From assembly GCA_964492615.1 (NCBI GenBank), contig CAZBKZ010000002.1, positions 1,323 to 65,322 on the forward strand: DNA of 64,000 nucleotides, written 5' to 3'. The stretch's first letter is position 1. Each line of letters starts with the position of its first letter. Shown in pieces: positions 5,035 through 23,824 of this stretch. The position numbers were made by a program, and so were the translations under genes. The notes beneath the pieces were generated by a model. That model was not told the DNA's origin and made no database searches. It saw only the letters and a list, made by a program, of their open reading frames with translations. The stretch comes from an uncultured Syntrophomonadaceae bacterium. GTDB lineage: Bacteria; Bacillota; Dethiobacteria; DTU022.

Positions 5035-7752
5035 GTGCTAAAAAAAGTTATAACGGTAAATGGATTGGAAAGAACCCTAATTGTTGAGCCGGAAAGAAGT
5101 TTGGCAAGTGTTCTCAGGGAACAGCTTTTACTGACAGGCTGTAAAGTCGGTTGCAACCAGGGTCAGTGCGGGTGCTGTTCAGTGGTTCTTGATGGCGAGG
5201 TTGTCCGTTCCTGCGTAACGAAGATGAAGCGGGTACCTGATTATGCTGAAATTTGGACCATTGAGGGGATCGGAACCGCCCAAAACCTGCATCCCTTGCA
5301 GGTGGCCTGGATGGCCTATGGTTGTGCCCAGTGTGGTTTTTGCAGTCCGGGCTTTATCATGTCGGCCAAGGTTTTACTGGAGAAGAACCCCGATCCGACC
5401 AGGGAGGAAGTTAGAGACTGGTTCCAGAAAAACCGCAATGCCTGCCGTTGTACCGGTTACAAGCCGCTTGTTGATGCAGTGATGGCGGCGGCCAAGGTTC
5501 TGCGGGGCGAAATGCACAAGGAAGAGCTGCTCTACAAACCGGTGGGCAACAAAATTTACGGCACTAATTACCACCGTCCTTCGGCGATGCAAAAAGTTAC
5601 CGGAACCTGGGACTACGGCGCCGATGTAGCCTTGCAGATGCCCTCTGACACCCTGCGTCTGGCCCTGGTGCAGGCCGAAGTTTCACATGCAAACATCAAG
5701 GGTATTGATACATCTGAAGCGGAAAAGATGCCCGGTGTTTATCAGGTTATCACCCACAAGGATGTAAAAGGTAATAACCGGATTAATGGTATGGTTACTT
5801 TCCCCTCAAACAAGGGAGATGGTTGGGATCGCCCCATCCTTTGTGATGAAAAAGTTTTTCAATACGGTGACACCATTGCCATAGTTGCCGCCGATACGGT
5901 TGAGCATGCCAGGGCGGCAGCCAAAGAAGTTAAAGTGGATCTGGAAGTTTTACCTGCCTATATGAGCGCACCGGCGGCCATGGAGTCCGATGCTATAGAG
6001 ATTCACCCTGGAACTCCAAATGTTTATTTTGAGCAGGGTGTTGAAAAGGGAGAAGACCCGAAACCCTTCATGGAGAACAGCGATCTTGTAACTGTAGAGG
6101 TTAGCACGATCTGCAGCCGTCAGCCTCATCTAATGTTGGAACCAGACTGTGGTTCTGCCTATTTTGATGAAGAAGGACGGTTAACCATCCACTCCAAGAG
6201 TATCGGTATTTACCTGCACCGCGATATGATTTACGAAGGGCTGGGCATTGAGCCAGAAAATCTACGTATTGTGGCCAATCCCACCGGCGGCACCTTTGGG
6301 TATAAATTCTGCCCCACCAACGAAGCTTTACTCGGTGTGGCATGCATGGCTACCGGAAAACCAGTCTCTCTTGTATTTGACATGCACCAGACCATTACCT
6401 ATACCGGAAAACGCTCTCCCGGCTTTGTAACTTGCAAATTGGCTGCAGATAAGGAAGGTAAACTGTTGGCGATGGAGTCAGATTGGACCATTGATCATGG
6501 CCCGTACTCAGAATTTGGAGATCTACTGACCTTGCGCCTCGCTCAGTTTATAGGGGCCGGTTATGATATCCCCAATATTAAGGGTAAAGGACGCACAGTT
6601 TGTACTAATCACGCCTGGGGAGCCCCCTTCAGAGCCTACGGCTCACCGCAGTCTTTCCTGGCTTCTGAAACGGCAATGGATGAGTTGGCGGAAAAACTGG
6701 GCATGGACCCCTTCGACCTGCGCTTTAAAAACATCTATCGTCCCGGAGCGACCACACCGTCACAGCAGGTGCCGGATGTTTACTGTTTTGAGGATATGTT
6801 TAACAAGCTTAGGCCTCACTGGGAAGAAGCGAAAAAACGCTGCAGCGACTTTAACAAACTCGGAAAAAAACGTGGTGTTGGGCTTTCCCTTGGCATTTAC
6901 GGTTGCGGCACCGACGGCCCCGATACCTCGGAAATATTTGTGGAACTGACAAAAGAAGGGGTTACCGTTGGCAGCACCTGGGAAGATCATGGGCAAGGGG
7001 CAGATATCGGCACCTTGACCCATGCCCACGAAACCTTGCGTCAGGCAGGAATCAAGCCGGAGCAGATCAGACTGGTCATGAACGATATGGCCCTTTCACC
7101 CGATAGCGGCCCCTCAGGCGGGAGCCGGCAAAACCTGGTGACCGGTAATGCACTCAGGGTTGGCAGTGAAAGACTCATTGAAGCGATGCGTAAGGAGGAC
7201 GGAACATTCCGCACCTATGACGAGATGGTTGCAGAAAATATACCGCTACGTTATGAGGGTAAGTGGACTGCAAGCATGTGCACCATGTGTGATGCTGAAA
7301 AAGGGCAGGGGGATCCTTTTGCCGGATATGTTTACGAACTCTTTATGCCCGAGGTGGAAGTTGACCTTGAATCGGGCAAGGCAAAAGTGGTTAAGTTTAC
7401 CACGGTTGTAGACTGCGGCACCATTTCGAACAAGAGTGCAGTAGACGGCCAAATCTACGGAGGGTTGGCCCAGGGCATAGGTCTGGCTCTTTCCGAGGAC
7501 TTTGACGATTTGGAAGTTCACACTAACCTCCTGAAATGCGGACTTCCCTATATTAAGGATGTTCCCGATGACATGGAGATCATTTACAATGTTGAGCCGC
7601 GCCCCCATGGGCCTTATGGCGCTTCCGGAGTCGGTGAAGGCCCGTTGACCGCACCTCACCCGGCTATACTTAACGCAATCTATAATGCCTGCGGTGTCAG
7701 GATTTATGATATTCCAGCACTCCCGGAAAAGATTAAAGCCAAGCTTAAATAA
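5035..7752 (+). CDS. mop: Molybdopterin aldehyde oxidoreductase of the D. gigas MOP type: an N-terminal plant-type [2Fe-2S] domain fused to a xanthine-dehydrogenase-family Mo-MCD domain, with no FAD domain.
   Basis: GTG start with a GAGGAG RBS. Cys motifs CNQGQCGCCS and CAQCGFCSPGF. The a/b-hammerhead and Moco-binding regions are present. 905 aa. Confidence 0.85.
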   Translation: MLKKVITVNGLERTLIVEPERSLASVLREQLLLTGCKVGCNQGQCGCCSVVLDGEVVRSCVTKMKRVPDYAEIWTIEGIGTAQNLHPLQVAWMAYGCAQCGFCSPGFIMSAKVLLEKNPDPTREEVRDWFQKNRNACRCTGYKPLVDAVMAAAKVLRGEMHKEELLYKPVGNKIYGTNYHRPSAMQKVTGTWDYGADVALQMPSDTLRLALVQAEVSHANIKGIDTSEAEKMPGVYQVITHKDVKGNNRINGMVTFPSNKGDGWDRPILCDEKVFQYGDTIAIVAADTVEHARAAAKEVKVDLEVLPAYMSAPAAMESDAIEIHPGTPNVYFEQGVEKGEDPKPFMENSDLVTVEVSTICSRQPHLMLEPDCGSAYFDEEGRLTIHSKSIGIYLHRDMIYEGLGIEPENLRIVANPTGGTFGYKFCPTNEALLGVACMATGKPVSLVFDMHQTITYTGKRSPGFVTCKLAADKEGKLLAMESDWTIDHGPYSEFGDLLTLRLAQFIGAGYDIPNIKGKGRTVCTNHAWGAPFRAYGSPQSFLASETAMDELAEKLGMDPFDLRFKNIYRPGATTPSQQVPDVYCFEDMFNKLRPHWEEAKKRCSDFNKLGKKRGVGLSLGIYGCGTDGPDTSEIFVELTKEGVTVGSTWEDHGQGADIGTLTHAHETLRQAGIKPEQIRLVMNDMALSPDSGPSGGSRQNLVTGNALRVGSERLIEAMRKEDGTFRTYDEMVAENIPLRYEGKWTASMCTMCDAEKGQGDPFAGYVYELFMPEVEVDLESGKAKVVKFTTVVDCGTISNKSAVDGQIYGGLAQGIGLALSEDFDDLEVHTNLLKCGLPYIKDVPDDMEIIYNVEPRPHGPYGASGVGEGPLTAPHPAILNAIYNACGVRIYDIPALPEKIKAKLK

Positions 7753-7782
7753 AAGGTCGGTTTTGTGGGTTCACCTTGAGGA

Positions 7783-7810
7783 GAACTGTCGTATCTTGTG
7801 GCGACAGTTC
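7783..7810 (+). promoter_or_regulatory. Stem-loop GAACTGTCG-N10-CGACAGTTC between mop and the downstream oxidoreductase gene.
   Basis: Perfect 9-bp inverted repeat. There is no U-tract, so it is either a weak terminator/attenuator or an operator. Confidence 0.35.
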
Positions 7811-7863
7811 GCTTCAACCGCTATCATCATGCAACATAGACCGATTCAAAGGGAGAGCTCAGG

Positions 7864-10210
7864 ATGGATCATAATTATTTGCACGAGGTAGAGGCTAAAT
7901 GCACACAGGATCAGCAGCCAGGATGTGTGGCAGGTTGTCCTGTCCATGTTGACATTCCAGCATTGATTGCAGCTGTAAAAAAAAGGCGATTACTCGAAAG
8001 GTTTTGCCGTATTTAGAAAACATGTACCATTTCCCGGGATCATCAGCCATATTTGCAACCAGCCCTGTCAACTATCGTGCAAAAGGTCTGAGATAGATCA
8101 TCCTGTTGCAATTAATATCATGGAGCGGGTTTGTGTGCTGACTGGGGATGGCAGTTTGTCGGAAAGGTCGGGCGCCCTGCCGGTGAAAGAACGCAACAAA
8201 AAAGCAGCTGTTATCGGAGCCGGTTTAAGCGGCCTTACTGTTGCATGGGAGTTGGTAAAAAAGGGTTACCCTGTAACCATCTTCGAGCTTTCAGAACAGC
8301 CTGGAGGAAAAATTTTAAAAGAATCTGAAGAACGAATGCCGCGTCATATTATTGAAAAAGATTTTGCCCCGCTAATCAACAACTCCATGCTTGAAACCTG
8401 TTGGGGCTCCGGGGTTGGTGTCAGCGGCGGGATGGTTAACTTTGCCGATCTCCTTGCCCGTTATGATGCCATTTACCTAGGTACAGGTTCAAACTACGCG
8501 CTTCCTGCAGGGGTGGATCTCACCTTTGATGAGCAGGGGTTCCCCAGTCATGATCCAAAAACCCTGGCAACGGCAATTGACAAGGTCTTCATCGGCGGCA
8601 GCCTAATCCTGGAGAGCGAGAAAAGATCACCCATTGAATCAGTTAGCCATGGTAAAATAGCTGCTCTTTCTATTGACCGTTTCCTGCAGGGCGTATCACT
8701 GACTGCAGGGCGCTCACGAGAAGGGGCTTATGAAACCCTACTCTATACATCACTTAAAGGCATTTCCCCTGAACCTGTATATATTGAAGATCGACCGGGA
8801 GAATTACCAAATTCGGAACAAACTTTACAGGAGGCAAATCGCTGCCTTTTATGTACCTGCCTTGAATGTGTAAAGGCCTGCCCCTACCTGGAGCATTATG
8901 GGTCATACCCGAAAAAGTATGTCAGGGAGATTCACAATAACCTGATTATCATTAAAGGTGGGCGTGGCGCAAATGAAAAGATCAATAGCTGCAGTCTCTG
9001 CGGTTTATGTGCCGAAGTTTGTCCTGGCAATTTAGACATGGGCGAGTTTTGTTTCAAAGCCCGGAAGAAGATGGTCGAGACTGGCAAAATGCCCCCTTCA
9101 GCGCACGATTTTGCCTTGCAGGATATGGCATTCAGCACAAGTGAGCTGGTTGCCCTGCATAGGCACCAACCGGGTTTTAGCAAGAGCAGGGCCCTGTTTT
9201 TTCCCGGTTGCCAGTTAAGTGCTTCATCTCCACATTATGTAGGAAGGCTTTATACTTACCTGAGGGAAAAAATTGATGGTGGAGTTGGTTTGAGTCTCAG
9301 TTGCTGCGGCGCGCCTGCCCAATGGGCGGGCAGGGAAGACCTTTTTAATGAAAATATTGATTTACTGAAAAAAAACTGGACCGCATTAGGCAACCCGGCC
9401 ATTATTACCGGCTGCCCGACCTGCTTCAGTGTTTTCAGAAAGGTGTTGCCCGATCTGGATTGTGAGACAATCTGGACAGTTCTTGACCGGGTTGGCCTGC
9501 CAGAAAACAGCGGTGCCGGGGTTAAGATGAAAAAACTGGCTGTTCACGATGCCTGCACCACAAGGTACGACAAACCTCTGCAAAATAGTATTCGTAACAT
9601 TTTACTTGCTCTTGGGCACCAGGTACAAGAGCTTGAAAACAGCCGGGAGACAACAACCTGTTGTGGTTATGGCGGTTTGATGAGTTATGTTAACCGTGAG
9701 GTTGCCCGTAAAGTGGTTGAAAAGCGTATCGCCGAAAACCCTGAAGATTACCTGGCATACTGTGCCATCTGCCGCGACCATTTTGCGGCCCGGGGCAAAA
9801 GAACTTACCACCTTCTTGATCTCATTTTTGGCAGTTCTGACCACGACCTTGCAGGCGATCAAGGCCCTGGTTTTTCAAAACGCCAGGAAAACCGCTACCG
9901 CTGCAAGAAGAGCCTCTTAAAAAAAGTCTGGGGTGAAGAGATTCAAACCAGGGAGCCTGGCTTTGAACTGGCCATCAGCGCCGCCGTGCGCAGCAGCATG
10001 GAGGAGAGGATGATTCTTACCGGTGATATAATCGAAGTGATCAGTCATGCCCGCAGCAGTGGAAATGTAATGGAAAATACTGAAACAGGGACCATGGTCG
10101 CTTACTATAAACACCGCAACGTTACCTACTGGGTTGAATTCACCGTGGAAAACGAAAGTATCTATCACATTCAAAAAGCGTACAGCCACCGCCTAGTAAT
10201 TAAGGGGTAA
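7864..10210 (+). pseudogene. GltD-like NAD(P)H:FAD oxidoreductase fused to 2x[4Fe-4S] ferredoxin and HdrD/GlpC-like 2xCCG domains. It is interrupted by a +1 frameshift in an A8 tract at 7977-7984.
   Basis: ATG 7864 has a GGGAGAG RBS and encodes MDHNYLHEVEAKCTQDQQPGCVAGCPVHVDIP, the GltD N-terminal Fe-S motif. Removing one A joins it in-frame to ICNQPCQLSC...AVIGAGLSGL and so to ORF 8120..10210. Two CCG motifs are present (SCCGAP, TCCGYGG). Confidence 0.7.
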
Positions 10211-10221
10211 AGGAGAACCAA

Positions 10222-10416
10222 ATGAGTGAAACCAGTAAAATATTATGCAGCCGCTGCGGTATTTACTTGACCATGGGCACGGTTACCCTTACCTACCTGG
10301 AGGCCAGTTTCCCGGCTGAACTTTACAAGTGCGCTAAATGCGGCCTGGTCTACATCCCCGAGGATTTGGCTCTGGGCAAGATGGCGCAGGTAGAGAAAAC
10401 ACTGGAAGACAAGTAA
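10222..10416 (+). CDS. Small zinc-ribbon protein (CxxC-N24-CxxC).
   Basis: 64 aa with an AGGAGA RBS. Two CxxC pairs. Confidence 0.6.
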   Translation: MSETSKILCSRCGIYLTMGTVTLTYLEASFPAELYKCAKCGLVYIPEDLALGKMAQVEKTLEDK

Positions 10417-10448
10417 ACCAGCGGTATGTTTTAGGAGGTTAAAAGAAA

Positions 10449-10748
10449 ATGGTTAATAGAAAAACCGGGCCTGATCCGGAGGAAGAGCGCGCTGAAGTAA
10501 TCGAGGCTGACACTGTCACTATTGAAGTAGTTGACAAGACAACAGGCTGCCTTTATCGCCGACAGGTTCCCCTGTGTTATCACGAAAATAGCAACGGAAT
10601 CATACTAAAGGGCGAAAATCTTGAAGGGAAAAGTGCGGTTCTCGCGTTGCTGTCCGACCAAGCTCTTGCTAAATACAGTGACTTGATCGGGATGGGGCCG
10701 GATGCACCTACGCATCATAGTACTGAGAAAAAAAAGAGCAAAAGTTGA
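10449..10748 (+). CDS. Hypothetical protein.
   Basis: GGAGG RBS. No recognisable domain. Confidence 0.5.
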   Translation: MVNRKTGPDPEEERAEVIEADTVTIEVVDKTTGCLYRRQVPLCYHENSNGIILKGENLEGKSAVLALLSDQALAKYSDLIGMGPDAPTHHSTEKKKSKS

Positions 10749-10928
10749 ATGCATGCTAAAAATGAAATCCCACGACGCAGGAAAACCAGGTTATATATGA
10801 AAATGGTTTTATTTATTTAGTTGCCTTTGAAAACCATCAGTCCGGGAGGTATAGTTGTAACCGGTCAGTTTGATTGGTTTAATCATATTAATAAAAATGT
10901 GCTGTAATTATGGATGGAGGTATCGGTC

Positions 10929-11336
10929 ATGAATATTACAAAACGGGTAAATGAATTACTTTTACAAGGTCACTGCTGCAGCCAGATCATCATGAAAATG
11001 GGATTAGACAAAATGCAAAAAGAAAATGAAGATCTGGTAATCGCGATGAAAGGGTTGTCCCAGGGTATGTATGCCGGGACTGTCTGCGGTACTCTTTCTG
11101 CCGCTTCCTGCCTGCTCTTTCTCCTCTCAGTGAGCATGGGGCAAGATATGAGCACGGAACTGACTGGTTGGTTCGAAAAAGAGTTCGGAGTAATCGATTG
11201 TCCCGAATTGCTGGGCGATGACCCTGTTGGAGCAAGCTTGAGCCTCTGTCCGGAAATCATTCAGCGAACCTTTGCCGAAGTCCTCGAAGTAGCAGAACGT
11301 TATAATCTTTCCTGGGTGGAAATAACGAATGGGTGA
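10929..11336 (+). CDS. C_GCAxxG_C_C family putative redox-active protein.
   Basis: Cys pattern GHCCSQ / VCGTLSAASC / DCP / LCP. Start chosen at the ATG with a GGAGG RBS; the upstream ATG lies inside the RBS. Confidence 0.6.
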   Translation: MNITKRVNELLLQGHCCSQIIMKMGLDKMQKENEDLVIAMKGLSQGMYAGTVCGTLSAASCLLFLLSVSMGQDMSTELTGWFEKEFGVIDCPELLGDDPVGASLSLCPEIIQRTFAEVLEVAERYNLSWVEITNG

Positions 11337-11431
11337 TTGATATTTCAATAAATCCGACTATTTCCTGAGTGCAAACATTTTGTTTGGCACTGGGGTTACA
11401 GCTTCATTGATATGAGGAGGTTACTTTAATA

Positions 11432-12703
11432 GTGCTTGAAAAAACATCGCTTGATCGATGGGTTGCAGAAAAGATTGGTCTTCAGGATGAGGATAGCCTG
11501 ACCCCCCGGAAAATCTTGGCTTACCAGGATGTGATGCTTAAGAAACTGTTAGCCTATGTCAGTGTTAAAAGCCCTTTTTACAGGGAGCTCTATCGTAATG
11601 TTGATACTTCAGTTATTTCAGGCCTTGATGATCTATCCAGGTTACCCATGGTAGATGCGGGAGATCTTGTTGAACATAGCAGCCGGATGGTTTGTGTGTC
11701 ACAGAAGGAAATCAGCAGAATCGTTACCCTGGAGACAACAGGAACTACCGGTTCGCCTAAAAGAGTCTATTTTACTAACGAAGATCAGGAATTGACTATA
11801 GATTTTTTTCACCGGGGCATGCTTAACCTGATTGGCCCTTCAGACCACTTGCTGATTTTACTGCCCTGGGAAAGACCGGGAAGTGTAGGTGACCTGTTGC
11901 AAAAAGGTGTCAGGCGTATTGGCGCCGAGGTTACCTGTTACGGATTGGTGGATAGCCCTGAAAGCGTTGTAAACACAATTATTGCAAGAGGAATAACCAG
12001 CCTGGTTGGTGTACCGGTGCAGATTTTGTCCTTGGTTTATGCTCCCGGTGCAGAAAAAGTTAACCTGGCCGCTGTGCTGTTGAGTACCGATTATGTGGCT
12101 GGCAGCTTGGCCGGTAAGATCGGACTCCGGTTTGGTTGCCCGGTTTTTGAACATTATGGGATGACCGAAACCGGGCTTGGCGGTGCGGTTTCCTGCCGGG
12201 CGTTCCAGGGGTATCACCCCCGGGCCGCTGACCTGGTTTTTGAAATAATCGATCCAAATAGCGGGGAGCTTCTTGAAACAGGAGAAACCGGAGAAATCGT
12301 GGTTACTACCCTTACCCGTCAGGGAATGCCTTTCATTCGTTATAGAACCGGCGACAAGGGGCGTTTTCTGGCAAAACCCTGTCCCTGCGGTTCTGTTCTG
12401 CCCAGGCTTGATAAAGTTAAAGGCCGTTATTCTGAAGATGTAACTATGGGGGGGCAAACTGTTAACCTGGCTAATCTTGATGAACTTTTGTTTGCATTGG
12501 ATGGAGTTATAGATTACCAGGCCGAGGTGAAAAACAATAAAGGCAAAGAGTGGATCAAGGTGAATCTTTTGGTAGCCGATAACATTTTTAATATACCCGA
12601 GCACTTATCTTATGATGGCATAGATATCTACATTGATTGTGAAATAATTACCTTAAATGAAGCACCGGTTTACAGGAAAAGAAAATTTGTTAATACTAAT
12701 TAA
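11432..12703 (+). CDS. Phenylacetate-CoA ligase (PaaK) / F390-synthetase-family adenylate-forming enzyme.
   Basis: GTG start with a GAGGAGG RBS. P-loop-like TTGTTGSPKR and a PaaK-like C-terminal domain. Confidence 0.7.
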   Translation: MLEKTSLDRWVAEKIGLQDEDSLTPRKILAYQDVMLKKLLAYVSVKSPFYRELYRNVDTSVISGLDDLSRLPMVDAGDLVEHSSRMVCVSQKEISRIVTLETTGTTGSPKRVYFTNEDQELTIDFFHRGMLNLIGPSDHLLILLPWERPGSVGDLLQKGVRRIGAEVTCYGLVDSPESVVNTIIARGITSLVGVPVQILSLVYAPGAEKVNLAAVLLSTDYVAGSLAGKIGLRFGCPVFEHYGMTETGLGGAVSCRAFQGYHPRAADLVFEIIDPNSGELLETGETGEIVVTTLTRQGMPFIRYRTGDKGRFLAKPCPCGSVLPRLDKVKGRYSEDVTMGGQTVNLANLDELLFALDGVIDYQAEVKNNKGKEWIKVNLLVADNIFNIPEHLSYDGIDIYIDCEIITLNEAPVYRKRKFVNTN

Positions 12704-12770: not shown

Positions 12771-13009
12771 TCAAAAGGTTGTTTATTGCTTTTTTTTATT
12801 GCCATTATGTCATAAACTGCATAGTGCTTATAAGAGCGTGGTAGCATAACTGTATTTAAGAAACAATTACCATAGATATTTTTATTCAAAGAAATAAGAC
12901 TTTAAATTTTTTTTTACTTAACTTAGCAGTATGCGGTTTTTGCCTCACATTTTTATTGAAGGCGAGGTTATAATTCCAGCCTATATTTAACAACAAAGGA
13001 GGAACGGTA

Positions 13010-16000
13010 TTGAAACGAAGGGATTTTCTTAAACTTACCGGAGTAACTGGCGCAGGCTTGCTCCTTACCGACCTTGGGTTTAACGCAGCGCCGGTTGAAG
13101 CCGCATCTCAAACGATCAGAATTCACAATTCAGAAGAATTTTATTCTGTTTGTACTTTTTGTTCTTGCGGCTGCGGGATGATTTGTAGCGTTAAAGATGG
13201 GAAAATGATTAACCTTGAAGGTGACCCTGATCATATCGTCAGTGAGGGGGCCCTCTGCAGTAAGGGGGCAGCTATGGCGGTAATGCCCAACTCTGATCAA
13301 CGGATCAGGAACCCTCTCTACAGGGCGCCGCGCAGCAACAAGTGGGAAGAAATCAGCTGGGAAGAAGCTATCGACAAGGTTGCCAGGAAATTTGTTGAAA
13401 CCAGGGACGATTACTGGATCAGCGATGAGACTATTGACGGTACCACTTATAAGGTTAACCGCTGCGACGCAGTTAGCTTCATGGGCGGAGCTCAAAACAA
13501 TACAGAGGAATCATATCTCCTTTCTAAGATGTCGAGAATTCTGGGCGCCGTGTATGTAGAGCACCAGGCCAGGGTCTGACACAGTCCCACGGTCGCCAGT
13601 TTAGGCGCCTCATTAGGACGTGGAGCTATGACCAATCACTGGGTTGATTTAAAAAATGCCAAGGTCTTCCTGATCCAGGGTAGCAATGCTGCCGAGAATC
13701 ACCCCATGGCAGTAAAATGGATGCTGGAAGCAAAGAAAAAAGGGGCAATCATTATTCATGTCGACCCCCGTTACACCAGGACCTCATCCATTGCCGATAT
13801 TCATGCCCAGATTCGTCCGGGTGCGGATATCGCATTTCTAAATTCAATTATTAACTACATTATTACCAATAACCTTTATGATGAAGACTTTGTTATTAAC
13901 CATACCAATGCGCTATTGATTGCCAACGAAGAATTCGATTACCAGGACGGCCTTTTTTCGGGCTATAATGACGGTAAATTCAGTTACACCAACCTTTCCT
14001 GGGGTTATACCCTTGATGAAGAAAGCAAGCCTATTAAGGCGGAAAGTCTCGATGATCCTCGCTCTGTCTTCAGCAAAGCCAAGGAATTCTTCAAGCGCTA
14101 TGATTTTAAGGTGGCTTCCGATATCTGCGGGGTTCCCGAGGAAAAGATCAAGCTAATTGCCGATACCCTGGTTAACAATAAGCCTGGAACAATCTGCTAC
14201 GCCCTGGGGATGACCCAGCATACTACCGGCGTTCAGGGGATTCGTTCTTTCGGTATTCTCCAAATGCTCTTAGGGAACCTGGGCAAGCCGGGCAGCGGTG
14301 TTAACGCCATGCGTGGTGAGCCCAATGTGCAGGGAGCAACCGATATGGCCATGTTGTTCCATATCATTCCCGGGTACCTGGCTGTTCCCAACCACGATGT
14401 CGTGGATCTTGATACTTGGACTTCGCGGACCGGTACTTTTCGCCGGACTTTTATGACCAGTATTCTCAAAGCGTGGTTTGGTGACCACGCCCAACCGGAA
14501 AATGATTTTTGTTTTAATTGGTTACCGAAAAAGAACGGGCGTGAAAACTACTCACTCTTCAGGATCTTTGAGACAGCCCTTGATAAAAAGATGAAGTTTC
14601 TCTATATCATGGGTCAGAACCCCATGGTTACCAACCCTAACCTGAACCTGGTGCACGAATCACTGGGCAACCTGGATATGCTGGTTTCTGTTGACCTCTT
14701 TATGACCGAAACCGCCGCTTTCTGGGAAAAACCGGGTGTGGATCCGAGTACGCTTGATACGGAGGTAATTTTCCTCCCTGCGGCCTCTTTCCTCGAAAAA
14801 GAAGGAACCCTGGTTAATTCAGGGCGGATGGTTCAGTGGCGCTATACCGGGATTAAACCGGTCGGCAATTCAAAAACCGACCTGGAGATCATTGATTTGC
14901 TTTTTAACCGCATCCGCGAGCTTTACCAGGGTTCAAGCGACAGCAAGGATGAGCCCATTTTAAAGGCCAACTGGAACTACGAAGCAGAAGATTCTCCCTC
15001 TTTCTCAGAGGAAGTATTGAAGGAAATCAACGGTTACAATCTGGCCACCGGTGAACTCTTAAAAGGGATTGGCGAACTTAAGCCTGACGGAACCACTGCC
15101 GCGGGGAACTGGCTGTATGCCGGAATCTTCGCCAACAACCAGAACCATTCCAAGCGCAAGGATAACATTAACGATCCCGGCGGCCTTGGCATCTATCCCG
15201 GCTTTGCCTGGACCTGGCCCGGAAACTGTCACGTCTTATATAATCGTGCGTCTTGTGATGCTGAAGGTAAGCCTTATGATGAAGCCAATAAGTGTATCTG
15301 GTGGGATGAGGAAAAGGGTATGTGGACCGGGTATGACACTCCCGACGTGCCGAACAGGAACGACGGACCCGATACACCCAACGGCAAAAGACCCTTCCGG
15401 ATGGCCGGGGAAGGTCTCGCCCGTATTCTTGCCGGGCCCTACCAGGATCCCTTTGCCAATCAGCTTCTGCCCAGGGATTCATCAAGCGTCCCTGCCGACG
15501 GCCCGCTTCCGGAGCACTATGAACCCTTTGAGAGCCCTACAGAAAACGTTTTGCATCCCAACGTCCCAGTCAACCCCTGTGTTAAGTATCCCCGAATTCC
15601 GGATAAGCAGCCAATCGGTACGGCAGCGGATTACCCCTACGTTCTCTGTACATCAAGCATGGCAGAGCACTGGTGTGCCGGGACTCAAACCCGTAACATG
15701 CCCTGGTTAAACGAACTGCAGCCAGAAACATTTATTGAAATACCGAAAAACCTGGCTGCCGAAAAGGGCATCAAGAATGGTGACTGGGTAAAAGTCTGGT
15801 CTGCCCGGGGCGAAGTTGAGGCCAAGGCCCAGGTAACCCACCGTATCCATCCCCTTAAAATTAACGGCAAGGAGGTTGATGTGGTCTGGATGCCGTATAA
15901 CTGGGGATACAAGGGCCTTAGTCAGGCTGCCAGCACAAACTATGTGACTATTGATGCAGGCGATCCGAATACCTGGATCCAGGAAACAAAGTGTTGTCTG

Positions 16001-16021
16001 GTAAACCTGGATAAGGCTTAA
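13010..16021 (+). CDS. fdhA: Formate dehydrogenase catalytic (alpha) subunit. It is a selenoprotein (in-frame UGA = Sec at 13577-13579) with a Tat signal.
   Basis: Twin-arginine signal MKRRDFLKLTGV. Fe-S motif CTFCSCGCGM. Track ORFs 13010..13579 and 13628..16021 are in the same frame and are joined by HQARV-U-HSPTVASLG, the classic Sec motif. The molybdopterin domains follow. Confidence 0.9.
13591..13609 (+). ncRNA. Bacterial SECIS upper stem-loop for fdhA (cis-acting mRNA element).
   Basis: Hairpin GGUCGCC-AGUUUA-GGCGCC with a bulged U. It begins exactly 11 nt 3' of the UGA, the spacing seen in E. coli fdhF. A GU is present in the apical loop. Confidence 0.55.
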
Positions 16022-16142
16022 TCGATTATTGTAGCGCAAATTAAGAACCACTGGTTCTGGATGCTGAAGAATATAAACCCGTTAGCCTGCCGACAGCAGG
16101 CTCACGTGAAGCACACCTAAAACTACTCAAAGGCGGTTTAAA

Positions 16143-17021
16143 ATGAGCAACCAGGAATGGAGCAGCTTTGATAAATGGCTTAAAGAGCATCCTTATTTAA
16201 ATGAAATAGGAAGCTTCCACAGAGTTTTGTCAAAAGCTATTGAGGGTTTTGATAAAGAGCAATTCAGTAAAGATTTGCCGGTATCTGACTTAGAAGAAAT
16301 AAAGCAGGGATACAGTAAGGGTGTACCCTTGCTCAGCTCTTTAACGGAGATCAATATGGTTACTGGAATAGCAGGCAGCCTGTTTAAAAAAATAGTTAAT
16401 GCTCTGCTTGAGGCCGATTTACCTTCTAAAACGCTAGAACAGGTTAAAGCCCTTAGAGGTTATATTGAAAAGGTTCCTGATCTTCCAAGAAGGTTAATAA
16501 GGCTGGTTATTAAGGGCAGTAGTGATTCGAAACCTGAAGAGCTTGAATCTGTTTTTAACGATGTAAACGAAGGGTTTGTTAATTTTCTGGCCTGGTCCTC
16601 CTTATCTGCAATCCTTGAGCCTTTGAGAGAAGTAACTGGTGAGTTGCTGGAAGAGAAACCCTGGAGGAAGGGTTACTGTCCTTTGTGTGGGCATTTGCCG
16701 GCGATGGGCCAGCTAATAAGAACAAAAAGAGGGCGGGAACGGGAATTGATCTGCGGATGCTGCAAAATGAAATGGACCTATCGGCGCATTGGCTGTCCCT
16801 ACTGCGGAAACGAAAATGTCAATACGCTGAAACTGATTGAATTTGTTGAAATGCCCGAAATGCGCCTGGATACATGTGAAGAGTGCAAGGCTTATGTAAA
16901 GACATACATAAATCAGGGTAATGAACAGGTTGCCCTCGCAGATTGGTCTACCTTACACCTTGATCTTATCGGAAAAAATAAAGGATTTCAGAGGGTTGAT
17001 GAGTTTTTCTATGAACTTTAA
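16143..17021 (+). CDS. fdhE: Formate dehydrogenase accessory protein FdhE.
   Basis: Four CxxC pairs (CPLCGH, CGCC, CPYCGN, CEEC), typical of FdhE. Confidence 0.85.
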   Translation: MSNQEWSSFDKWLKEHPYLNEIGSFHRVLSKAIEGFDKEQFSKDLPVSDLEEIKQGYSKGVPLLSSLTEINMVTGIAGSLFKKIVNALLEADLPSKTLEQVKALRGYIEKVPDLPRRLIRLVIKGSSDSKPEELESVFNDVNEGFVNFLAWSSLSAILEPLREVTGELLEEKPWRKGYCPLCGHLPAMGQLIRTKRGRERELICGCCKMKWTYRRIGCPYCGNENVNTLKLIEFVEMPEMRLDTCEECKAYVKTYINQGNEQVALADWSTLHLDLIGKNKGFQRVDEFFYEL

Positions 17022-18210
17022 TCAAAATATATATTTGGATAATGCTGCTACTGGCTTTCCTAGGCCTGCAATCGTAACCGATTCAGTTAGTTGCTGGATG
17101 CTCGAAGAAGGCGGTTCTCCCGGTCGCGGTCATCATTTTCTGTCTCGCCGGGCCGGTGATCAGGTGTCAAAGATTCGCCGGCAGGTAGCCCGTTTTTTTG
17201 GGGTTAATGAAGAGTTCAGGGTTGCTTTTACCTTTGGTGCAACTGATGCATTGAACATGGCGATTAAAGGAATCCTGCGAAAGGACGATCACGTTATTAT
17301 CTCTGGAATGGAGCATAATTCTGTACTACGGCCTCTGCGCCATCTGGAAGCTGAAGGTTTAATCAGTATTGATGTTATATCCTGTAATGAAGAAGGCTAT
17401 CTGGTTGAAAATTTAATTTGGGAAGCCTTTCATGAAAAAACAAAATTAATAGTTATTAACCACGCTTCAAATGTAACAGGCAGTATACAGGCTGTTGCTG
17501 AGATAGGGGCGGAAATCCGTCGTCGGGGAGCATATTTGCTGCTTGATGCAGCCCAGTCAACTGGAAATATTCCGATCAAAATTGGTGAACTGAATGCTGA
17601 TATGATAGTTTTTGCCGGGCACAAGGGGCTTTTTGCCCTCCCTGGGGTAGGCGGTATGATTATTGGTGAGCGGATCAATCAACTAAATACATGGCGACAG
17701 GGAGGAACCGGCTATAATTCAAAATCGGAGACTCAGCCACTTAATTGGCCGGAAGCATTTGAAGCCGGAACAATGAATATGCCAGGTATAATATCACTTG
17801 GTAAAGGGATAGAATATATTGAGGAACAAGGCCTGGAAGCAATTGCAAGCCAGAAGATGGCTCATCTAAAATACCTGTGGGATACCTTATCGGAAATTGA
17901 AGGAATAAAGTTATACGGACCTAATCCGGAAAAGCCCAGGGTAGCGGTTCTCTCATTAAATATAACAGACTGGGAACCTGACGATGTTGCAGAAATATTG
18001 CAGCATAACTATAAGGTTCAGGTTCGTTCCGGGCTGCACTGTGCGCCGCTGGCCCATAATACCCTGGGTACAATGCCCAATGGTTCAGTCAGAATCAGTC
18101 CCGGGTATTTTACTAAGCAGGAAGACCTGGATACGGTTGTGCAGGCGATTAAGAATATGGCTTTAAGCAGAGTCGGCTGGAATCTTTTCAATGAAGCCCC
18201 GGCTAATTAA
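17011..18210 (+). CDS. Class-V aminotransferase: a group-II cysteine desulfurase or selenocysteine lyase (SufS/CsdA-like).
   Basis: PLP-binding Lys in FAGHKGL. Active-site RSGLHCAPLAH. Overlaps the fdhE 3' end. Alternative ATG at 16999. Confidence 0.8.
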   Translation: MNFNQNIYLDNAATGFPRPAIVTDSVSCWMLEEGGSPGRGHHFLSRRAGDQVSKIRRQVARFFGVNEEFRVAFTFGATDALNMAIKGILRKDDHVIISGMEHNSVLRPLRHLEAEGLISIDVISCNEEGYLVENLIWEAFHEKTKLIVINHASNVTGSIQAVAEIGAEIRRRGAYLLLDAAQSTGNIPIKIGELNADMIVFAGHKGLFALPGVGGMIIGERINQLNTWRQGGTGYNSKSETQPLNWPEAFEAGTMNMPGIISLGKGIEYIEEQGLEAIASQKMAHLKYLWDTLSEIEGIKLYGPNPEKPRVAVLSLNITDWEPDDVAEILQHNYKVQVRSGLHCAPLAHNTLGTMPNGSVRISPGYFTKQEDLDTVVQAIKNMALSRVGWNLFNEAPAN

Positions 18211-18345
18211 TTTGGGGTTTTGAACCGGGGAACAGGGCTTTGCGGAGATATTGTATCTTGTCAGGTGGTGATTTTACAGATCTGCTAGTCTTAGTATTGC
18301 CATATGCTGGTATAAACCAAGTAAAGTAAATGGTGGTGATAATTA

Positions 18346-19713
18346 GTGACATTAACATTTGATAGAGGGGTATTTCTGCCCCATTATAAGGAATCAACTG
18401 AAAATGAGCCTATAGAATCAATTTCTATGCCGGAAGAGATTGTAATGCCAATGAGTCAGCATGTCGGGGCACCATGTAACCCTACCGTCAGCGTTGGCGA
18501 TCAAGTGAATATTGGGCAGAAAATCGGAGAAAGCCTTACCATGATTAGCGCGCCAATTCATTCAAGTGTGGATGGTGTTGTAACATCTATCGAACTGCGA
18601 CCATATTTTACCGGAAGTAAGGTTAACAGTGTTGTTATCAAGCCTGATGAAAATCAAAGTGATTTTAATAAAAAGGAAAATGATATCGGTAAGTTGGATC
18701 GGGAAAAAATTGTAGAGATGATCAAAGAAGCGGGAATTGTAGGTATGGGAGGAGCTGCCTTCCCTACCCATGTTAAGCTGAACCCGCCAAAAGAGATTGA
18801 CCGGGTTATTATTAACGCCTGTGAATGTGAACCTTACTTAACATGCGATCATAGGATGCTTGTCGAGATGACTGAAAAGTGTGTAGAAGGAGCTAAAATA
18901 ATTGCAAAAGTTGTCGGGGCTCGTCAGATAATATTTGGCATTGAAACCAACAAGCCTGATGCGGCAGAAAAAATTAGCAGCACTATTTTTAAGGATGATG
19001 ATATTTCCGTTGCTATGCTCGATGTTAAGTACCCGCAGGGCGCCGAGAAACAGTTAATAAAAGCAACGGTTAATCGTGAAGTTCCACCCGGGAAGCTACC
19101 TTTTGAGGTAGGGGTTGTTGTTCACAATGTAGCTACCTGTATTGCCATCTATGAAGCAGTCCGGTATGAAAAGCCTCTTTATGAGAGAGTTTTAACTGTT
19201 ACTGGCGACGGAATTGCCAAATCTGCAAATGTTAAAGCCCTGATTGGCACACCAATTGGACATATTATCCATGAGTGTGGAGGGTTTAAAGGTATTGTCA
19301 GTGGTGAAGTGAAAATTGATACCAGCGATGTCCGTTATCCTGTATATGCTCCGCCGGAAGCCAAGGCCAAGGTTATTATGGGTGGACCCATGACCGGTTT
19401 TGCCCAGCAGAGCCTTGATGTCCCTATAGTGAAAGGGACGGGAGGCATCCTGATCTTCACTCCGGAGATGATTAATGCCAGTGAATACCTGGCCTGTGTT
19501 CGCTGTTCCAACTGTGTTCAGCACTGCCCGATGGGGCTTTATCCAAACTATATAGGGACATATGCCGAAACAGGACGCTACAACCATTCAATCGATTGGG
19601 GAGCTTTAGATTGCTTTGAGTGTGGTGTCTGTGTGTATGTTTGCCCATCGAACAGGCCCATCGTCAGGTTTGTCAGGGAAGTGAAACAGTTTGCGGCGCG
19701 AAAAGCGGATTAA
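18346..19713 (+). CDS. RnfC-like Fe-S flavoprotein (RnfC_N barrel, NuoF-like nucleotide/FMN fold, 2x[4Fe-4S]).
   Basis: PMSQHVGAPCNPTVSVGDQV (RnfC N-terminus). GMGGAAFPTHVKL. CVRCSNCVQHCP and CFECGVCVYVCP. GTG start. Confidence 0.75.
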   Translation: MTLTFDRGVFLPHYKESTENEPIESISMPEEIVMPMSQHVGAPCNPTVSVGDQVNIGQKIGESLTMISAPIHSSVDGVVTSIELRPYFTGSKVNSVVIKPDENQSDFNKKENDIGKLDREKIVEMIKEAGIVGMGGAAFPTHVKLNPPKEIDRVIINACECEPYLTCDHRMLVEMTEKCVEGAKIIAKVVGARQIIFGIETNKPDAAEKISSTIFKDDDISVAMLDVKYPQGAEKQLIKATVNREVPPGKLPFEVGVVVHNVATCIAIYEAVRYEKPLYERVLTVTGDGIAKSANVKALIGTPIGHIIHECGGFKGIVSGEVKIDTSDVRYPVYAPPEAKAKVIMGGPMTGFAQQSLDVPIVKGTGGILIFTPEMINASEYLACVRCSNCVQHCPMGLYPNYIGTYAETGRYNHSIDWGALDCFECGVCVYVCPSNRPIVRFVREVKQFAARKAD

Positions 19714-19772
19714 TACTTGAGAACTTTTAAGCGCAGCTAAGATAAAAGAATACAAAGGAGGGATTTTCTAAG

Positions 19773-20768
19773 GTGAATAATCAGCTCAGGTTAACGGTAA
19801 CACCATCTCCGCACCTGCATTCAAAAGAATCAGTATCGAATGCAATGCGCGATGTATTTATTGCATTAATTCCGATCACTCTTGTATCTGTCTATATATA
19901 CAAGTCATATGCTCTCCTGTTGATCGGTGTTTGCCTGGCCATGGCGGCATTGACGGAATTGCTTTTCCGTAAAATCAGGAGACAACGAGCTACGCTAAAC
20001 GACGGAAGCGCCATGGTTACCGGTCTGTTGGTCGCGCTATGTTTTTCACCTGGTACAGCCTGGTGGACGGCAGCACTCGCAGTGTTCATCGGTATTGGCC
20101 TGGCCAAGGAGTTGATGGGTGGCTTGGGATGGAATCGTTATAACCCTGCATTATTCGGACGCCTTTCAGTTATTCTGCTGATACCGATATTCCACCAGGT
20201 TACATATGTTTTTTCTCCTCTTAAGCAGGATTTCGGCAGTGTTGATGTTTTAACACAAGCTACTCCATTGGCCCTGATGATCCAGGGTTCAGGTTATCCT
20301 AGCTTGCTCCAGATGTTTTTAGCCCACCAGGGCGGTTCGCTCGGTGAGACATCTGCGCTGGCGCTCTTAATCGGTGGCCTCTACTTGCTTTACAAGAAAC
20401 ATATAACCTGGCATACGCCTTTATCGGTTATTGCCGCAGTGGTGGTAATGGCCCTGCTTTTTGGAACAAACTTACTTGGCGCCGGGGCACCGCTTTATCA
20501 CCTATTAGGCGGAGGAGTATTATTGGGGGCTTTCTTCATGGCAACCGACTGGGTAACCAGCCCTATTACTCCTACAGGCAAAATTATTTTTGGGGCATCT
20601 ATTGGGATCCTCTTAATGGTTTTCCGCCTCTTTCTTGCGCCAACTGAAGGGATGGCATTTTCTATTCTAATAATGAACGCATTTGTCCCATTAATTGACC
20701 GTTATACTAAGCGGCTAAAGTTTGGCGAGATTAAAAAATCTGCTACTGAAACTGTTATGGGAACGTAG
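19773..20768 (+). CDS. RnfD/NqrB-family integral membrane protein with a covalent-FMN threonine motif.
   Basis: Polytopic membrane protein. DVLTQATPLA matches the RnfD/NqrB FMN-attachment motif (xTGATPL). AAGGAGGG RBS and a GTG start. Confidence 0.75.
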   Translation: MNNQLRLTVTPSPHLHSKESVSNAMRDVFIALIPITLVSVYIYKSYALLLIGVCLAMAALTELLFRKIRRQRATLNDGSAMVTGLLVALCFSPGTAWWTAALAVFIGIGLAKELMGGLGWNRYNPALFGRLSVILLIPIFHQVTYVFSPLKQDFGSVDVLTQATPLALMIQGSGYPSLLQMFLAHQGGSLGETSALALLIGGLYLLYKKHITWHTPLSVIAAVVVMALLFGTNLLGAGAPLYHLLGGGVLLGAFFMATDWVTSPITPTGKIIFGASIGILLMVFRLFLAPTEGMAFSILIMNAFVPLIDRYTKRLKFGEIKKSATETVMGT

Positions 20769-20780
20769 GGGGGGTAAACC

Positions 20781-21569
20781 ATGACAAAATCAATGTTAAT
20801 AGACATTTCCAAGTGTATGGGTTGTCGCGGCTGCCAGGTAGCCTGCAAGCAGTGGAACCAACTGCCAGCTGAAAATACCCGTAATACAGGGACTTATGAA
20901 AACCCACCTCGTTTTTCTGCTCATACATGGACTAAAATTGGTTTCCAGGAATATACAACTGAAGAAGGAATGGACACCTGGATTTTTACCAAACTGGGAT
21001 GTATGCATTGCAGTGATGCAGCTTGCATAAAAGCCTGCCCGGCAGGTGCAATAAGTCATACTGAATTTGGCACGGTTAGAATTGATGAAAAGAGGTGTAT
21101 CGGGTGTAACTACTGCATAGCCAACTGTACATTTAATGTAGTTGGATTTGATCAGGCAGCAAATCTGGCTAAAAAATGCACCTTTTGTTATGATCGAATC
21201 TCTGCCGGTGAAATACCGGCCTGTGCCAAGACTTGTCCAACCGGGGCAATCATGTACGGTGATCGTAGTGATATGATCAGTTTAGCACAGGAGCGTTTAG
21301 CTGAACTGAAAAGAGGTGCTTTCCCCCGGGCTGAAATTTATGGGCTTAAAGAACTGGACGGTTTGGGCATGATGTACATTTTGCCTGAAGGTAAAAGTAG
21401 TGCAATGGCAAAATATGCTCTTCCGGAGAACCCGAGAGTGCCGCTTTCAACTGAAGTTTGGAATTACATCTTCAAACCTGTTCGGATCATCCTGGTTGCT
21501 GCACTTGGTTTTGCTTTATGGATTAACCGGAGTGAATCGAAAAAGGAACAAACAGAAAAGAGCGCTTAG
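20781..21569 (+). CDS. fdhB: Formate dehydrogenase iron-sulfur (beta) subunit with four [4Fe-4S] clusters and a C-terminal membrane anchor.
   Basis: Four ferredoxin-like Cys clusters. The C-terminal hydrophobic helix is IILVAALGFALWI. GGGGGGG RBS. Confidence 0.85.
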   Translation: MTKSMLIDISKCMGCRGCQVACKQWNQLPAENTRNTGTYENPPRFSAHTWTKIGFQEYTTEEGMDTWIFTKLGCMHCSDAACIKACPAGAISHTEFGTVRIDEKRCIGCNYCIANCTFNVVGFDQAANLAKKCTFCYDRISAGEIPACAKTCPTGAIMYGDRSDMISLAQERLAELKRGAFPRAEIYGLKELDGLGMMYILPEGKSSAMAKYALPENPRVPLSTEVWNYIFKPVRIILVAALGFALWINRSESKKEQTEKSA

Positions 21570-21719
21570 AAAACCTTAGTGTGGGCAATAGCCCCGGGGT
21601 TTTGTTCAATAATATGTTATGCAACTAATATTTTCTGTTTATGAAGAAATATTAGTTGATCGGTTGCTGCACCGTTCAACTTTTATTTGATTAACTGCAT
21701 CAGTTAATCCATCTCAATT

Positions 21720-21746
21720 GGCGGGGTGATAACCCCGCCCCTTTTT
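21720..21746 (+). terminator. Rho-independent terminator ending the fdh operon.
   Basis: GGCGGGG-TGATAA-CCCCGCC followed by CTTTTT. Confidence 0.75.
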
Positions 21747-21779
21747 AAAAATATCGTTCGGCAAAAATGAGGGATAACT

Positions 21780-23018
21780 TTGATACCTTATGAAAAAGCT
21801 AAAGAATTATTAATGAACAGCAGAGTAATTGAAAATCATAGAAATGCAGTAGAATCGCTACATCTTTGGGAAGCAGGAGGAAGGATCCTTGCCGAGGACA
21901 TAATCGCGGGTGAAGATGTTCCTCCCTTCGACCGTTCGCCGGTTGACGGTTATGCTGTTATTGCTTCTGATACGGTTGCCGCTGCTGAAGAAGATCCTGT
22001 TATTCTTGAAGTAACTGGCTCAATTGCAGCAGGCACAACTTCCGAATACAGACTCAGCCCAGGGACGGCAATAAAAATATTTACCGGTGCGCCTTTGCCA
22101 GAGTATGCAAACTGTATAGTTAAGACAGAAGATGTTTTTGAAAGTTTTTTTGTTGATGAAAAGGAGTTTATCAAGCTAACGCACCCTGTTGCCAGTGGAG
22201 AGGTAATTGCTTTTAAAGGGGAGGATATTCAATGCGGAGAGACCATGCTTTTAAAAGGGTCAATAATTAATCCTGCCTGTATAGGAATACTGGCGACTTT
22301 AGGTGTAAGCACGGTTCCTGTTTTTAAAAAACCTTTGATAGGAATCTTTTCTACGGGAGATGAGCTTGTCAACGTAGAAAACCAGTTAAAACATGGTCAA
22401 TTAAGAGCATCAAATATATATACTCTTTCAGAAATTATAAGGTTATCAGGTTGCGAACCAGTCAACCTGGGCGTAATTAAAGATTCAATTGATGATATAT
22501 TAAGTGTATATTGCACTGCGCTAAAACTCGATCTGCCTGTAATAATTTCAACAGGAGGGACAGCTTCGGGTGATAAGGATTTGATCAAAGAAGCAATGAT
22601 TAAACTAGGCTCATCCCGATTATTTAATAAAGTAGCCATCAGGCCTGGAGCTCCGGTTGTTGCCTCTGAAATGGAAGAGCGATTATTGATAGGGCTTTCT
22701 GGAAATCCCTCAGGTTCGACTGTGGGAGCATTGACCCTGTTGATGCCGTTTATTTCTAAGATGGCTGGTAGGATTAAAGAATTGGATCGAGTCAGGGCAA
22801 TATTAAAAGGCTCAATATTTAGGCATGGTGGTTTACGGGCATTTCTTTGGGGTAACTGTTGTTACGACAAGGATATCTATCAGGTGGAAGCTAATAATAA
22901 CCAGTTCTGTGGAGCTGTAAGAAGCTTTGCTTCCAGTAATTGCCTGATAGATGTGCCGGCCGGAAAGGTTAACCTTTCTACTGGCGATTCGGTTGAAATA
23001 TTAAGGTTTTCTGTGTAG
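21780..23018 (+). CDS. moeA: Molybdopterin molybdenumtransferase MoeA (paralog 1).
   Basis: PPFDRSPVDGYAV motif and MoeA domain order. TTG start with a GAGGGA RBS. Confidence 0.85.
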   Translation: MIPYEKAKELLMNSRVIENHRNAVESLHLWEAGGRILAEDIIAGEDVPPFDRSPVDGYAVIASDTVAAAEEDPVILEVTGSIAAGTTSEYRLSPGTAIKIFTGAPLPEYANCIVKTEDVFESFFVDEKEFIKLTHPVASGEVIAFKGEDIQCGETMLLKGSIINPACIGILATLGVSTVPVFKKPLIGIFSTGDELVNVENQLKHGQLRASNIYTLSEIIRLSGCEPVNLGVIKDSIDDILSVYCTALKLDLPVIISTGGTASGDKDLIKEAMIKLGSSRLFNKVAIRPGAPVVASEMEERLLIGLSGNPSGSTVGALTLLMPFISKMAGRIKELDRVRAILKGSIFRHGGLRAFLWGNCCYDKDIYQVEANNNQFCGAVRSFASSNCLIDVPAGKVNLSTGDSVEILRFSV

Positions 23019-23129
23019 AGCTTAATTCAATTTGAAATAACTCAAACAGTAATTTTTCTAATCAAAACCCTGAAGAAATAATGCTAATCCTCAGAGAACA
23101 AAGGGTTAGCATTAGTAGCAGTATTTGCG

Positions 23130-23507: not shown

Positions 23508-23662
23508 ACCAATCCACCTCCGGTATAGTAATTCTCTAATAATAGTTTATATCCTTCTCCGTCATATCTACTGTTTTAGATAAGTTTAGGGCTTGGTAAT
23601 TACTTAATAATATGGAATAATTAAAATCATGTTAATAAGCGTTAATTAAGGAGGGTACACTA

Positions 23663-23824
23663 TTGAGAACACCTGTACTGACGAGGAAAGGTTTACGACA
23701 AAAGAAAAGAATAGTAAAAACTAATAGTTCTGGCAGTAATGCAGGTTCTTGCCGGGGGGTTAAATACCCTTGTACTTATCGTTGCAAGAAATGTATATTT
23801 GATACAATGTATTGTGGTAAGTGA
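23663..23824 (+). CDS. Unannotated 53-aa cysteine-rich mini-protein (five Cys in the C-terminal 25 aa).
   Basis: Consensus RBS AAGGAGGG, then 7 nt, then TTG. Sequence MRTPVLTRKGLRQKKRIVKTNSSGSNAGSCRGVKYPCTYRCKKCIFDTMYCGK. It is below the ORF-track size cutoff. Confidence 0.4.
   Translation: MRTPVLTRKGLRQKKRIVKTNSSGSNAGSCRGVKYPCTYRCKKCIFDTMYCGK

Follow-up and report, generated by a model that had tools for sequence, protein, structure and literature searches.

An in-frame TGA at positions 13577-13579 interrupts fdhA, the gene for the alpha subunit of a formate dehydrogenase (FDH), in a 64,000-nucleotide (nt) stretch of DNA from an uncultured Syntrophomonadaceae bacterium; this whole stretch, at its full length, is called the window below. 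The TGA is very probably (we would put it at about 0.93) a selenocysteine (Sec) codon within a single 1003-residue alpha subunit that carries a probable twin-arginine translocation (Tat) signal, with a bacterial Sec insertion sequence (SECIS) just 3' of the codon. Two listed open reading frames (ORFs), at 13010-13579 (189 aa, TTG start) and at 13628-16021 (797 aa), share one frame, and read-through translation across the TGA gives a single 1003-codon product with the junction VEHQARV*HSPTVASLGASLGRGAMTNHW. The predicted FdhA peptide that spans the Sec site is ...HQARV-U-HSPTVASLGASLGR. With the UGA masked as X, the product matches the NCBIfam model for the FDH-N alpha subunit, TIGR01553, over profile positions 3-1009 of 1009 with 1048.6 bits, versus a cut-off of 814.2, and its N-terminal Fe4S4 domain is recognized by PF04879 with 56.3 bits versus 22.7. 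The two ORFs should be merged in the annotation into one selenoprotein gene, with these parts:

13010..16021, + strand: fdhA, complete, for an FDH-N-type alpha subunit predicted to contain Sec; 1003 codons plus stop, TTG start, Sec as codon 190
12998..13002, + strand: Shine-Dalgarno-like GGAGG, 7 nt 5' of the TTG start, as read from the sequence
13010..13066, + strand: Tat signal region, residues 1-19, with RRDFLK; PF10518 (TAT_signal) 22.4 bits versus a gathering score of 22.7, E 1.1e-4, that is, at threshold
13577..13579, + strand: in-frame UGA, read as Sec codon 190 and predicted to supply a molybdenum or tungsten (Mo/W) ligand, from comparison of homologues, of structure sequences and of assemblies

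The closely related gene of locus L085, with 93% identity to fdhA, also uses a TTG start and encodes KRRDFLK.

The residue at the UGA can be placed on Sec enzymes of known structure. In an ungapped match of 127 residues, the X aligns with the non-standard residue of PDB chains 6sdr, 6sdv, 8cm4 and others, which were deposited as 'formate dehydrogenase, alpha subunit, selenocysteine-containing' and which have the flank EHQARIxHSPTV. The matches to E. coli FDH-N (1kqf) and FDH-H (1aa6) in the same search of PDB sequences also span the UGA site. The flank EHQAR(I/V)-U-HSPTV of the Sec-containing W/Mo enzyme FdhAB (6sdr, 6sdv, 8cm4 series), of the D. gigas enzyme (1h0h) and of E. coli FDH-N (1kqf) is the same as that of the window.

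Homologous genes tell the same story at the level of the codon. About 70 of the 120 best protein matches (61-93% identity) are fragments of some 770-820 residues that start just 3' of the UGA codon, at the first start codon after its position and typically with MTNHW; gene callers handle genes split by UGA in this way. The alignment of these fragment proteins was used to fetch 80 genomic loci (given L numbers here), in 72 of which the motif could be located. The homologous codon is TGA in 66 of the 72 loci and TGT or TGC, with different flanks, in the other 6, and the loci come from several phyla. All of the closest relatives of fdhA have TGA, L085 among them. The full-length protein matches with a locatable site (46 of 48) all carry Cys; they are more distant, at 50-64% identity, and their flanks read C-H-S-S-T, C-H-G-P-S or C-H-A-x-T versus U-H-S-P-T. 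A sequence-only reading of the window had claimed that the TGA splits fdhA within one frame at the conserved Sec site of FDH-N and FDH-H enzymes, and had suggested alignment to Sec-containing homologues as a check; the read-through translation, the TIGR01553 score, the alignment with the Sec of the 6sdr-type chains and the codon count of 66 in 72 all bear it out. That reading would have taken Cys homologues with identical flanks, combined with a lack of sel genes in the organism, as a sign of a true stop or pseudogene, and the Cys homologues that were found are both distant and differently flanked.

The sequence 3' of the UGA folds as a two-part hairpin. With the U of UGA numbered as position 1, its parts are:

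13580..13590, + strand: 11-nt spacer (positions 4-14), most of which also belongs to the 5' arm of the lower helix (13580-13582 and 13584-13587)
13591..13597, + strand: 5' arm of the upper SECIS stem, GGUCGCC, with U17 at 13593 bulged, from the minimum-free-energy fold
13598..13603, + strand: apical loop AGUUUA (A22 G23 U24 U25 U26 A27), with G23 at 13599 and U24 at 13600, from the same fold
13604..13609, + strand: 3' arm of the upper SECIS stem, GGCGCC, from the same fold
13616..13622, + strand: 3' arm of the lower helix, GGACGUG, pairing with 13580-13587 in the same fold and lying inside the SECIS_3 match

The upper element at 13591-13609 is thus 19 nt long, GGUCGCC-AGUUUA-GGCGCC, with six G-C pairs: G15 and G16 (13591-13592) pair with C32 and C33, and C18-C21 (13594-13597) pair with G28-G31. 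This is the hairpin that the sequence-only reading had drawn 11 nt 3' of the UGA, with its bulged U and AGUUUA loop, and together with the lower helix, which that reading did not mention, it is the minimum-free-energy fold of 13577-13625 (ViennaRNA, -16.3 kcal/mol). The Rfam model SECIS_3 (RF01989), searched against 201 nt (13500-13700), matches 13574-13632 end to end (model positions 1-59) with 49.4 bits and an E value of 7.7e-11. The match includes the conserved GUCUGAC...ACGGU...AGU...AUGAC and the same helices, and it has three non-canonical model pairs because the pairs of the window are in a register shifted by one base.

Comparison of 67 TGA-type sequences, aligned without gaps, was used to follow the hairpin through the family. 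In the apical helix, 94.6% of the cells are paired and 5 of 8 pairs are changed on both sides; none of 500 shuffles reaches the observed covariation score or paired fraction, and slid partners are paired in at most 54.5% of cells. RNAalifold recovers the same apical helix independently. The lower helix is weakly conserved, with 75.7% of its cells paired and one covarying pair. U17 is invariant across the 67 sequences, as is G23 (67 of 67 Sec-type homologues). The structure-plus-sequence match to SECIS_3 and this comparative evidence are far beyond chance. Between fdhA and L085, about half of all codons differ, although codons 193-201, which contain the upper hairpin, show zero differences.

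The Cys and Sec forms of the enzyme can be close to each other. The FdhA proteins of Candidatus Electronema sp. JM (L012) and sp. PJ (L028) are 85% identical, and the catalytic codon (site 9950-9952) is TGT, for Cys, in one and TGA, for Sec, in the other. At +3, the Cys form carries Ser rather than Pro, and what is left of its upper hairpin can still fold (-7.3 kcal/mol).

The element of the window has much in common with the minimal SECIS of E. coli fdhF. In both, the upper stem starts at position 15 and has a bulged U17, the loop contains G23 and U24, a lower helix is formed with the UGA-proximal bases, and the whole lies inside coding sequence. The window differs in the size of the upper element, which has 19 nt and the 6-nt loop AGUUUA, whereas that of E. 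coli has 17 nt. The loop of the E. coli upper element is the 4-nt GGUC. The host genes also differ, given that the window encodes a probably exported FDH-N-type subunit and E. coli fdhF the cytoplasmic FDH-H. The E. coli geometry quoted in the sequence-only reading agrees with the passage of PMC8659212 that cites Liu et al. 1998, where the 17-nt upper stem-loop of fdhF lies 11 nt from the UGA with a bulged U17 and with G23 and U24 in the loop; U17, G23 and U24 have the same numbers in the window. According to the same passage, U17 and G23 contact SelB in E. coli fdhF (PMC8659212, citing Liu et al. 1998). Bacterial SECIS elements in general are found just 3' of the UGA, are bound directly by SelB, and have a stem of 6-8 base pairs and a conserved G about 20 nt from the UGA (PMC4605307).

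Because the window element has the U17, G23 and U24 features at the E. coli positions, we infer that it binds SelB and directs SelB-dependent insertion of Sec at codon 190. The weaker lower helix would close around the UGA-proximal sequence, and the upper stem-loop would present U17, G23 and U24. By analogy with the E. coli and Moorella systems, SelB-GTP with Sec-tRNA(Sec) would bind the apical loop, and when the ribosome arrives with the UGA in its A site, SelB, competing with release factor 2, would deliver the Sec. Once inserted, this residue would become the ligand of the Mo/W bis-pterin cofactor in the exported formate dehydrogenase.

Several observations weigh against a functional SECIS and a Sec codon in the window. 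The folding energy alone is weak, with z = -1.97 and with 10 of 200 shuffled sequences at least as stable. A scan of the whole window with Rfam at the gathering score reported no SECIS, the 49.4 bits of the SECIS_3 match being below the gathering score of 63. The bulged U17 is not found family-wide, and the register of the window, with its 6-nt loop, is unlike that of most relatives, which have loops of 3-5 nt. Part of the sequence conservation is imposed by the conserved peptide. Finally, ARAGORN detected no tRNA-Sec, whether in the window or in L086-L090, the loci that flank it, and searches for selA, selB and selD came up empty in the 64-kb window and in about 10 kb beyond either end.

Since the folding energy is only marginal, the support for the SECIS rests on its context and on comparison. 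The SECIS_3 scores of the Sec-type relatives tested (7 of 7) are 51.5-58.6 bits, all below the gathering score of 63, so a below-threshold score is typical of the clade; the two Cys-type loci scanned with Rfam, L022 and L024, have no SECIS match. By the Rfam criterion, the window element is a sub-threshold relative of SECIS_3, and it is plainly related to it. The unusual register goes with the codon for Gly199, which is GGC in the window, L019 and L028 and results in the bulged U17 and the 6-nt loop. Most relatives instead form a pair between U17 and G (62 of 63 distinct sequences) and have the loop GUY, which widens to a 5-nt (A/G)GUYU when the closing pair is open. Because the register of the window is shifted relative to most relatives, the covariation supports the hairpin of the family and not the exact register of the window. 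At the level of the SECIS, a register-shifted variant with a 6-nt loop is the only candidate left for novelty.

Of the other explanations, the one that survives best, although it is very improbable, accepts the UGA as a Sec codon and takes the hairpin at 13591-13609 as a by-product of the conserved peptide TVASLGA, with no role as RNA and with the signal elsewhere or unneeded. The peptide encoded there is indeed highly conserved, and the marginal fold is of a kind that chance supplies: an equally stable hairpin lies 10-12 nt 3' of 15 of the 2455 TGA triplets in the window (both strands), although only 2 of the 15 have GU in the loop. Against this explanation, synonymous positions are under constraint. 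The wobble base U24 is retained in 66 of 67 sequences, high-GC genomes included, and the Ser codon at 22-24 is always AGU. Pairs also change on both sides, with A-U in place of G-C at positions 15-33 in L007, L014 and L018 and, deeper in the stem, U-A for C-G and G-C for C-G. Some of these paired changes alter two residues together, such that residue 196 (Ala, Pro, Gly or Ser) varies with residue 199 (Gly or Ser) to give VASLG, VPSLG or VGSLS. The Cys-type homologues of Deferribacterales and Mucispirillum have neither the hairpin nor the GU. In short, the comparative set shows an RNA signal that shapes the coding sequence, by freezing wobble bases and by making residues 196 and 199 change jointly to keep pairs.

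It is very improbable that the TGA is a genuine stop, which would make fdhA a pseudogene or a split gene whose N-terminal product has 189 aa and whose remaining 797 aa might be translated from a start of their own. Gene callers do split fdhA at the UGA in every assembly, TGA ordinarily serves as a stop codon in this organism, and sel genes are missing from the window and its flanks of about 10 kb. The same 'stop', however, stands at the catalytic codon across several phyla in the homologous loci described above, the SECIS match sits exactly at the expected place, and a second gene of the same genome has the same arrangement. A separate C-terminal piece would be without the probable Tat signal and the Fe4S4 domain. 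Moreover, fdhA and L085 differ by 430 synonymous and 80 non-synonymous codons, spread over both halves (77 and 21, respectively, 5' of the UGA, and 353 and 59 3' of it), which indicates that both halves of fdhA are under purifying selection.

Equally hard to credit is decoding of the UGA without a Sec system, by a reassigned code or by near-cognate read-through with Trp or Cys, or a sequencing error for TGY. No observation speaks for these readings. TGA terminates 9 of 37 family-assigned genes, a scan of TGA-joined ORF pairs showed that no TGA in the window other than that at 13577 links two long ORFs from a single protein family, and the UGA and hairpin are identical to the window in 6 of 6 independently assembled contigs (JGI, ENA and Logan data), with TGA also in the 93%-identical relative. 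From the terminated genes it follows that the genetic code is standard and that TGA is a normal stop here. The other TGA-joined ORF pairs in the window were rejected as candidates, being merely adjacent genes that share a frame by accident. Five of the six contigs agree with the window throughout the 5.4 kb compared, and the sixth has a single base difference in 4.9 kb.

A Sec codon calls for selenium machinery, and the scan of the window for sel genes covered about 50 long ORFs against NCBIfam, including all of a size to encode SelA, SelB or SelD; the 64-kb window contains no tRNA of any kind. Other selenium traits of the organism lie close by and, together with the gene order in some relatives, lend indirect support to a Sec-decoding trait. 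A second formate dehydrogenase of the same organism (L086 13439-16120, on a 306-kb contig) lies about 4.3 kb beyond the start of the window. It is of the NAD-linked FdhA type (TIGR01591, 842.8 bits versus 666), with NuoE-like and NuoF-like neighbours, and a TGA interrupts its gene at CART-U-HAPTVAGL, with the hairpin GUGGCC-GGUCU-GGCCAC 3' of it (SECIS_3, 37.1 bits, E 3e-7). About 4.6 kb beyond the end of the window, on the same contig, is a gene for MnmH (SelU/YbbB), a tRNA 2-selenouridine synthase (L089/L090 16433-17473, - strand; 344.6 bits versus 241). MnmH depends on selenophosphate made by SelD (PMC1794560), so its presence implies SelD in the genome. In an Acidobacteria relative with the same UGA and SECIS (L034, 16014-20749), the series of fdhA, a fused fdhB-HybB-type gene and fdhE runs straight on into selC, selB, selD and selA, and a tRNA-Sec stands beside fdhA also in the Acidobacteria relatives L036 and L041. 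We infer that selA, selB, selC and selD of the present organism lie elsewhere in its genome. With two Sec-type formate dehydrogenases and MnmH, it should be scored as a selenium user.

The region of the second formate dehydrogenase differs between samples. The contig of one sample has IS21-type genes (IstB-like; L087 13423-15341) where that of another has the second FDH operon (L086 13439-16120), which points to variation between strains or to a break in the assembly at an insertion sequence.

As a selenoprotein gene, fdhA of the window is ordinary. FdhA is the most widespread bacterial selenoprotein (PMC1794560). The window thus holds the commonest bacterial selenoprotein with its usual signal, in a SECIS type that Rfam already models, which is unsurprising to a specialist. 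Periplasmic Sec-containing formate dehydrogenases of Thermacetogenium phaeum (Tph_c15400/15410) and Syntrophomonas wolfei (Swol_0799/0800) have likewise been annotated as two genes, with the UGA and SECIS recognized via bSECISearch (PMC6895022). They share with the window a Firmicute alpha subunit with a Tat signal (a probable one in the window), the split annotation, and an fdhE gene in the cluster (PMC6895022). The partners of the enzyme are more interesting than the SECIS. The genes that follow fdhA are:

16143..17021, + strand: FdhE-like FDH maturation protein; TIGR01562 53.9 bits, below cut-off, with the FdhE central and C-terminal Pfam domains just under threshold
16921..18210, + strand: cysteine desulfurase family protein; TIGR01977 423 bits versus 377, true start probably near 17029
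18346..19713, + strand: RnfC-like subunit with a domain that binds flavin mononucleotide (FMN) and nicotinamide adenine dinucleotide (NAD(H)) and two [4Fe-4S] motifs; TIGR01945 490 bits versus 246, Pfam RnfC_N, Complex1_51K and Fer4
19773..20768, + strand: RnfD-like polytopic membrane subunit; TIGR01946 280 bits versus 207, PF03116 332 bits, several hydrophobic segments, DVLTQAT motif
20781..21569, + strand: FdhB-like iron-sulfur subunit with a C-terminal membrane helix; TIGR01582 235 bits, below 334.7, Pfam Fer4_11, hydrophobic segment at residues 229-248

The FdhE-like gene adjoins fdhA in nearly all relatives. The cysteine desulfurase was considered as a selenium-specific selenocysteine lyase and rejected in that role, given that it scores 321.7 bits with the SclA model, below 525, and that the gene is also found in the Cys-type loci L020-L024; a likelier role than one specific to selenium is to supply sulfur for the maturation of a cofactor.

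The canonical FdnGHI layout is not what is found here. The beta-like gene scores below its cut-off, and 16021-23018 contains no cytochrome b or HybB-type gene; the window as a whole lacks cytochrome b and HybB-type subunits as well as RnfG, E, A and B. Its RnfC-like and RnfD-like genes, and its lack of a cytochrome b (FdnI) subunit, set the operon apart from the systems of FdhAB, 1h0h and 1kqf. The operon differs as well from the clusters of Thermacetogenium phaeum and Syntrophomonas wolfei, in which gamma or quinone-reactive membrane subunits are found where the window cluster has RnfC and RnfD instead (PMC6895022). The trio of RnfC, RnfD and FdhB also adjoins fdhA in five related loci, L010, L011, L015, L085 and L006, the last of which has the whole trio inverted. 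In other lineages, FdhB comes straight after FdhA and is either joined to a HybB-type membrane protein in one polypeptide or encoded next to one, as with the fused FdhB-HybB-type protein of L034. Conservation of the trio as neighbouring genes suggests an FdhAB-RnfCD complex.

A tentative extension of this idea, which we consider possible though doubtful, is that the Sec-containing formate dehydrogenase is the catalytic head of a membrane complex. Exported FdhA and anchored FdhB would be wired via the RnfD-like flavin subunit to the cytoplasmic RnfC-like NAD(H)-binding subunit, in place of a cytochrome b or HybB-type anchor, so as to couple formate/CO2 outside to NAD+/NADH inside. If so, FdhAB-RnfCD could function as a redox loop or, when run backwards, could produce formate with the help of the proton-motive force in a syntroph. 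A literature search found no published description of a complex of FdhAB plus RnfCD. An unexplained partial Rnf, with only subunits C, D and G, has been described for a Syntrophomonadaceae genome (PMC6295475).

Genes related to Mo/W surround the fdh operon, at 838-12703 and 21780-25270. They include modABC, two MoeA paralogues, and a molybdopterin aldehyde oxidoreductase with companions of the DVU_1553/1555/1557 families.

A gene upstream of fdhA at 7864-10210 matches NF045663 (pyridine nucleotide-disulfide oxidoreductase/dicluster-binding protein) and is frameshifted in a run of eight A residues (A8) at 7977-7984. With one A deleted from the run, the match rises from 838.6 bits (positions 86-758) to 957.8 bits (positions 2-758). 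The run is identical in three independent assemblies, and the frameshift is therefore no random error; the gene could be a pseudogene, or could be expressed via transcriptional or translational slippage. A second selenoprotein in the window upstream of fdhA had been considered, in a gene that matches the 'diclust_near_Sec' model without the first 85 profile positions, and was rejected, as the cause is the A8 frameshift and there is no UGA. The small ORFs at 10222-11336 have no in-frame UGA.

Further along the window, 36886-40950 encodes a protein of 1354 residues with a match to the N-terminal part of pyruvate, phosphate dikinase. The match is confined to residues of about 860-1210, and about 1000 residues lie outside it.

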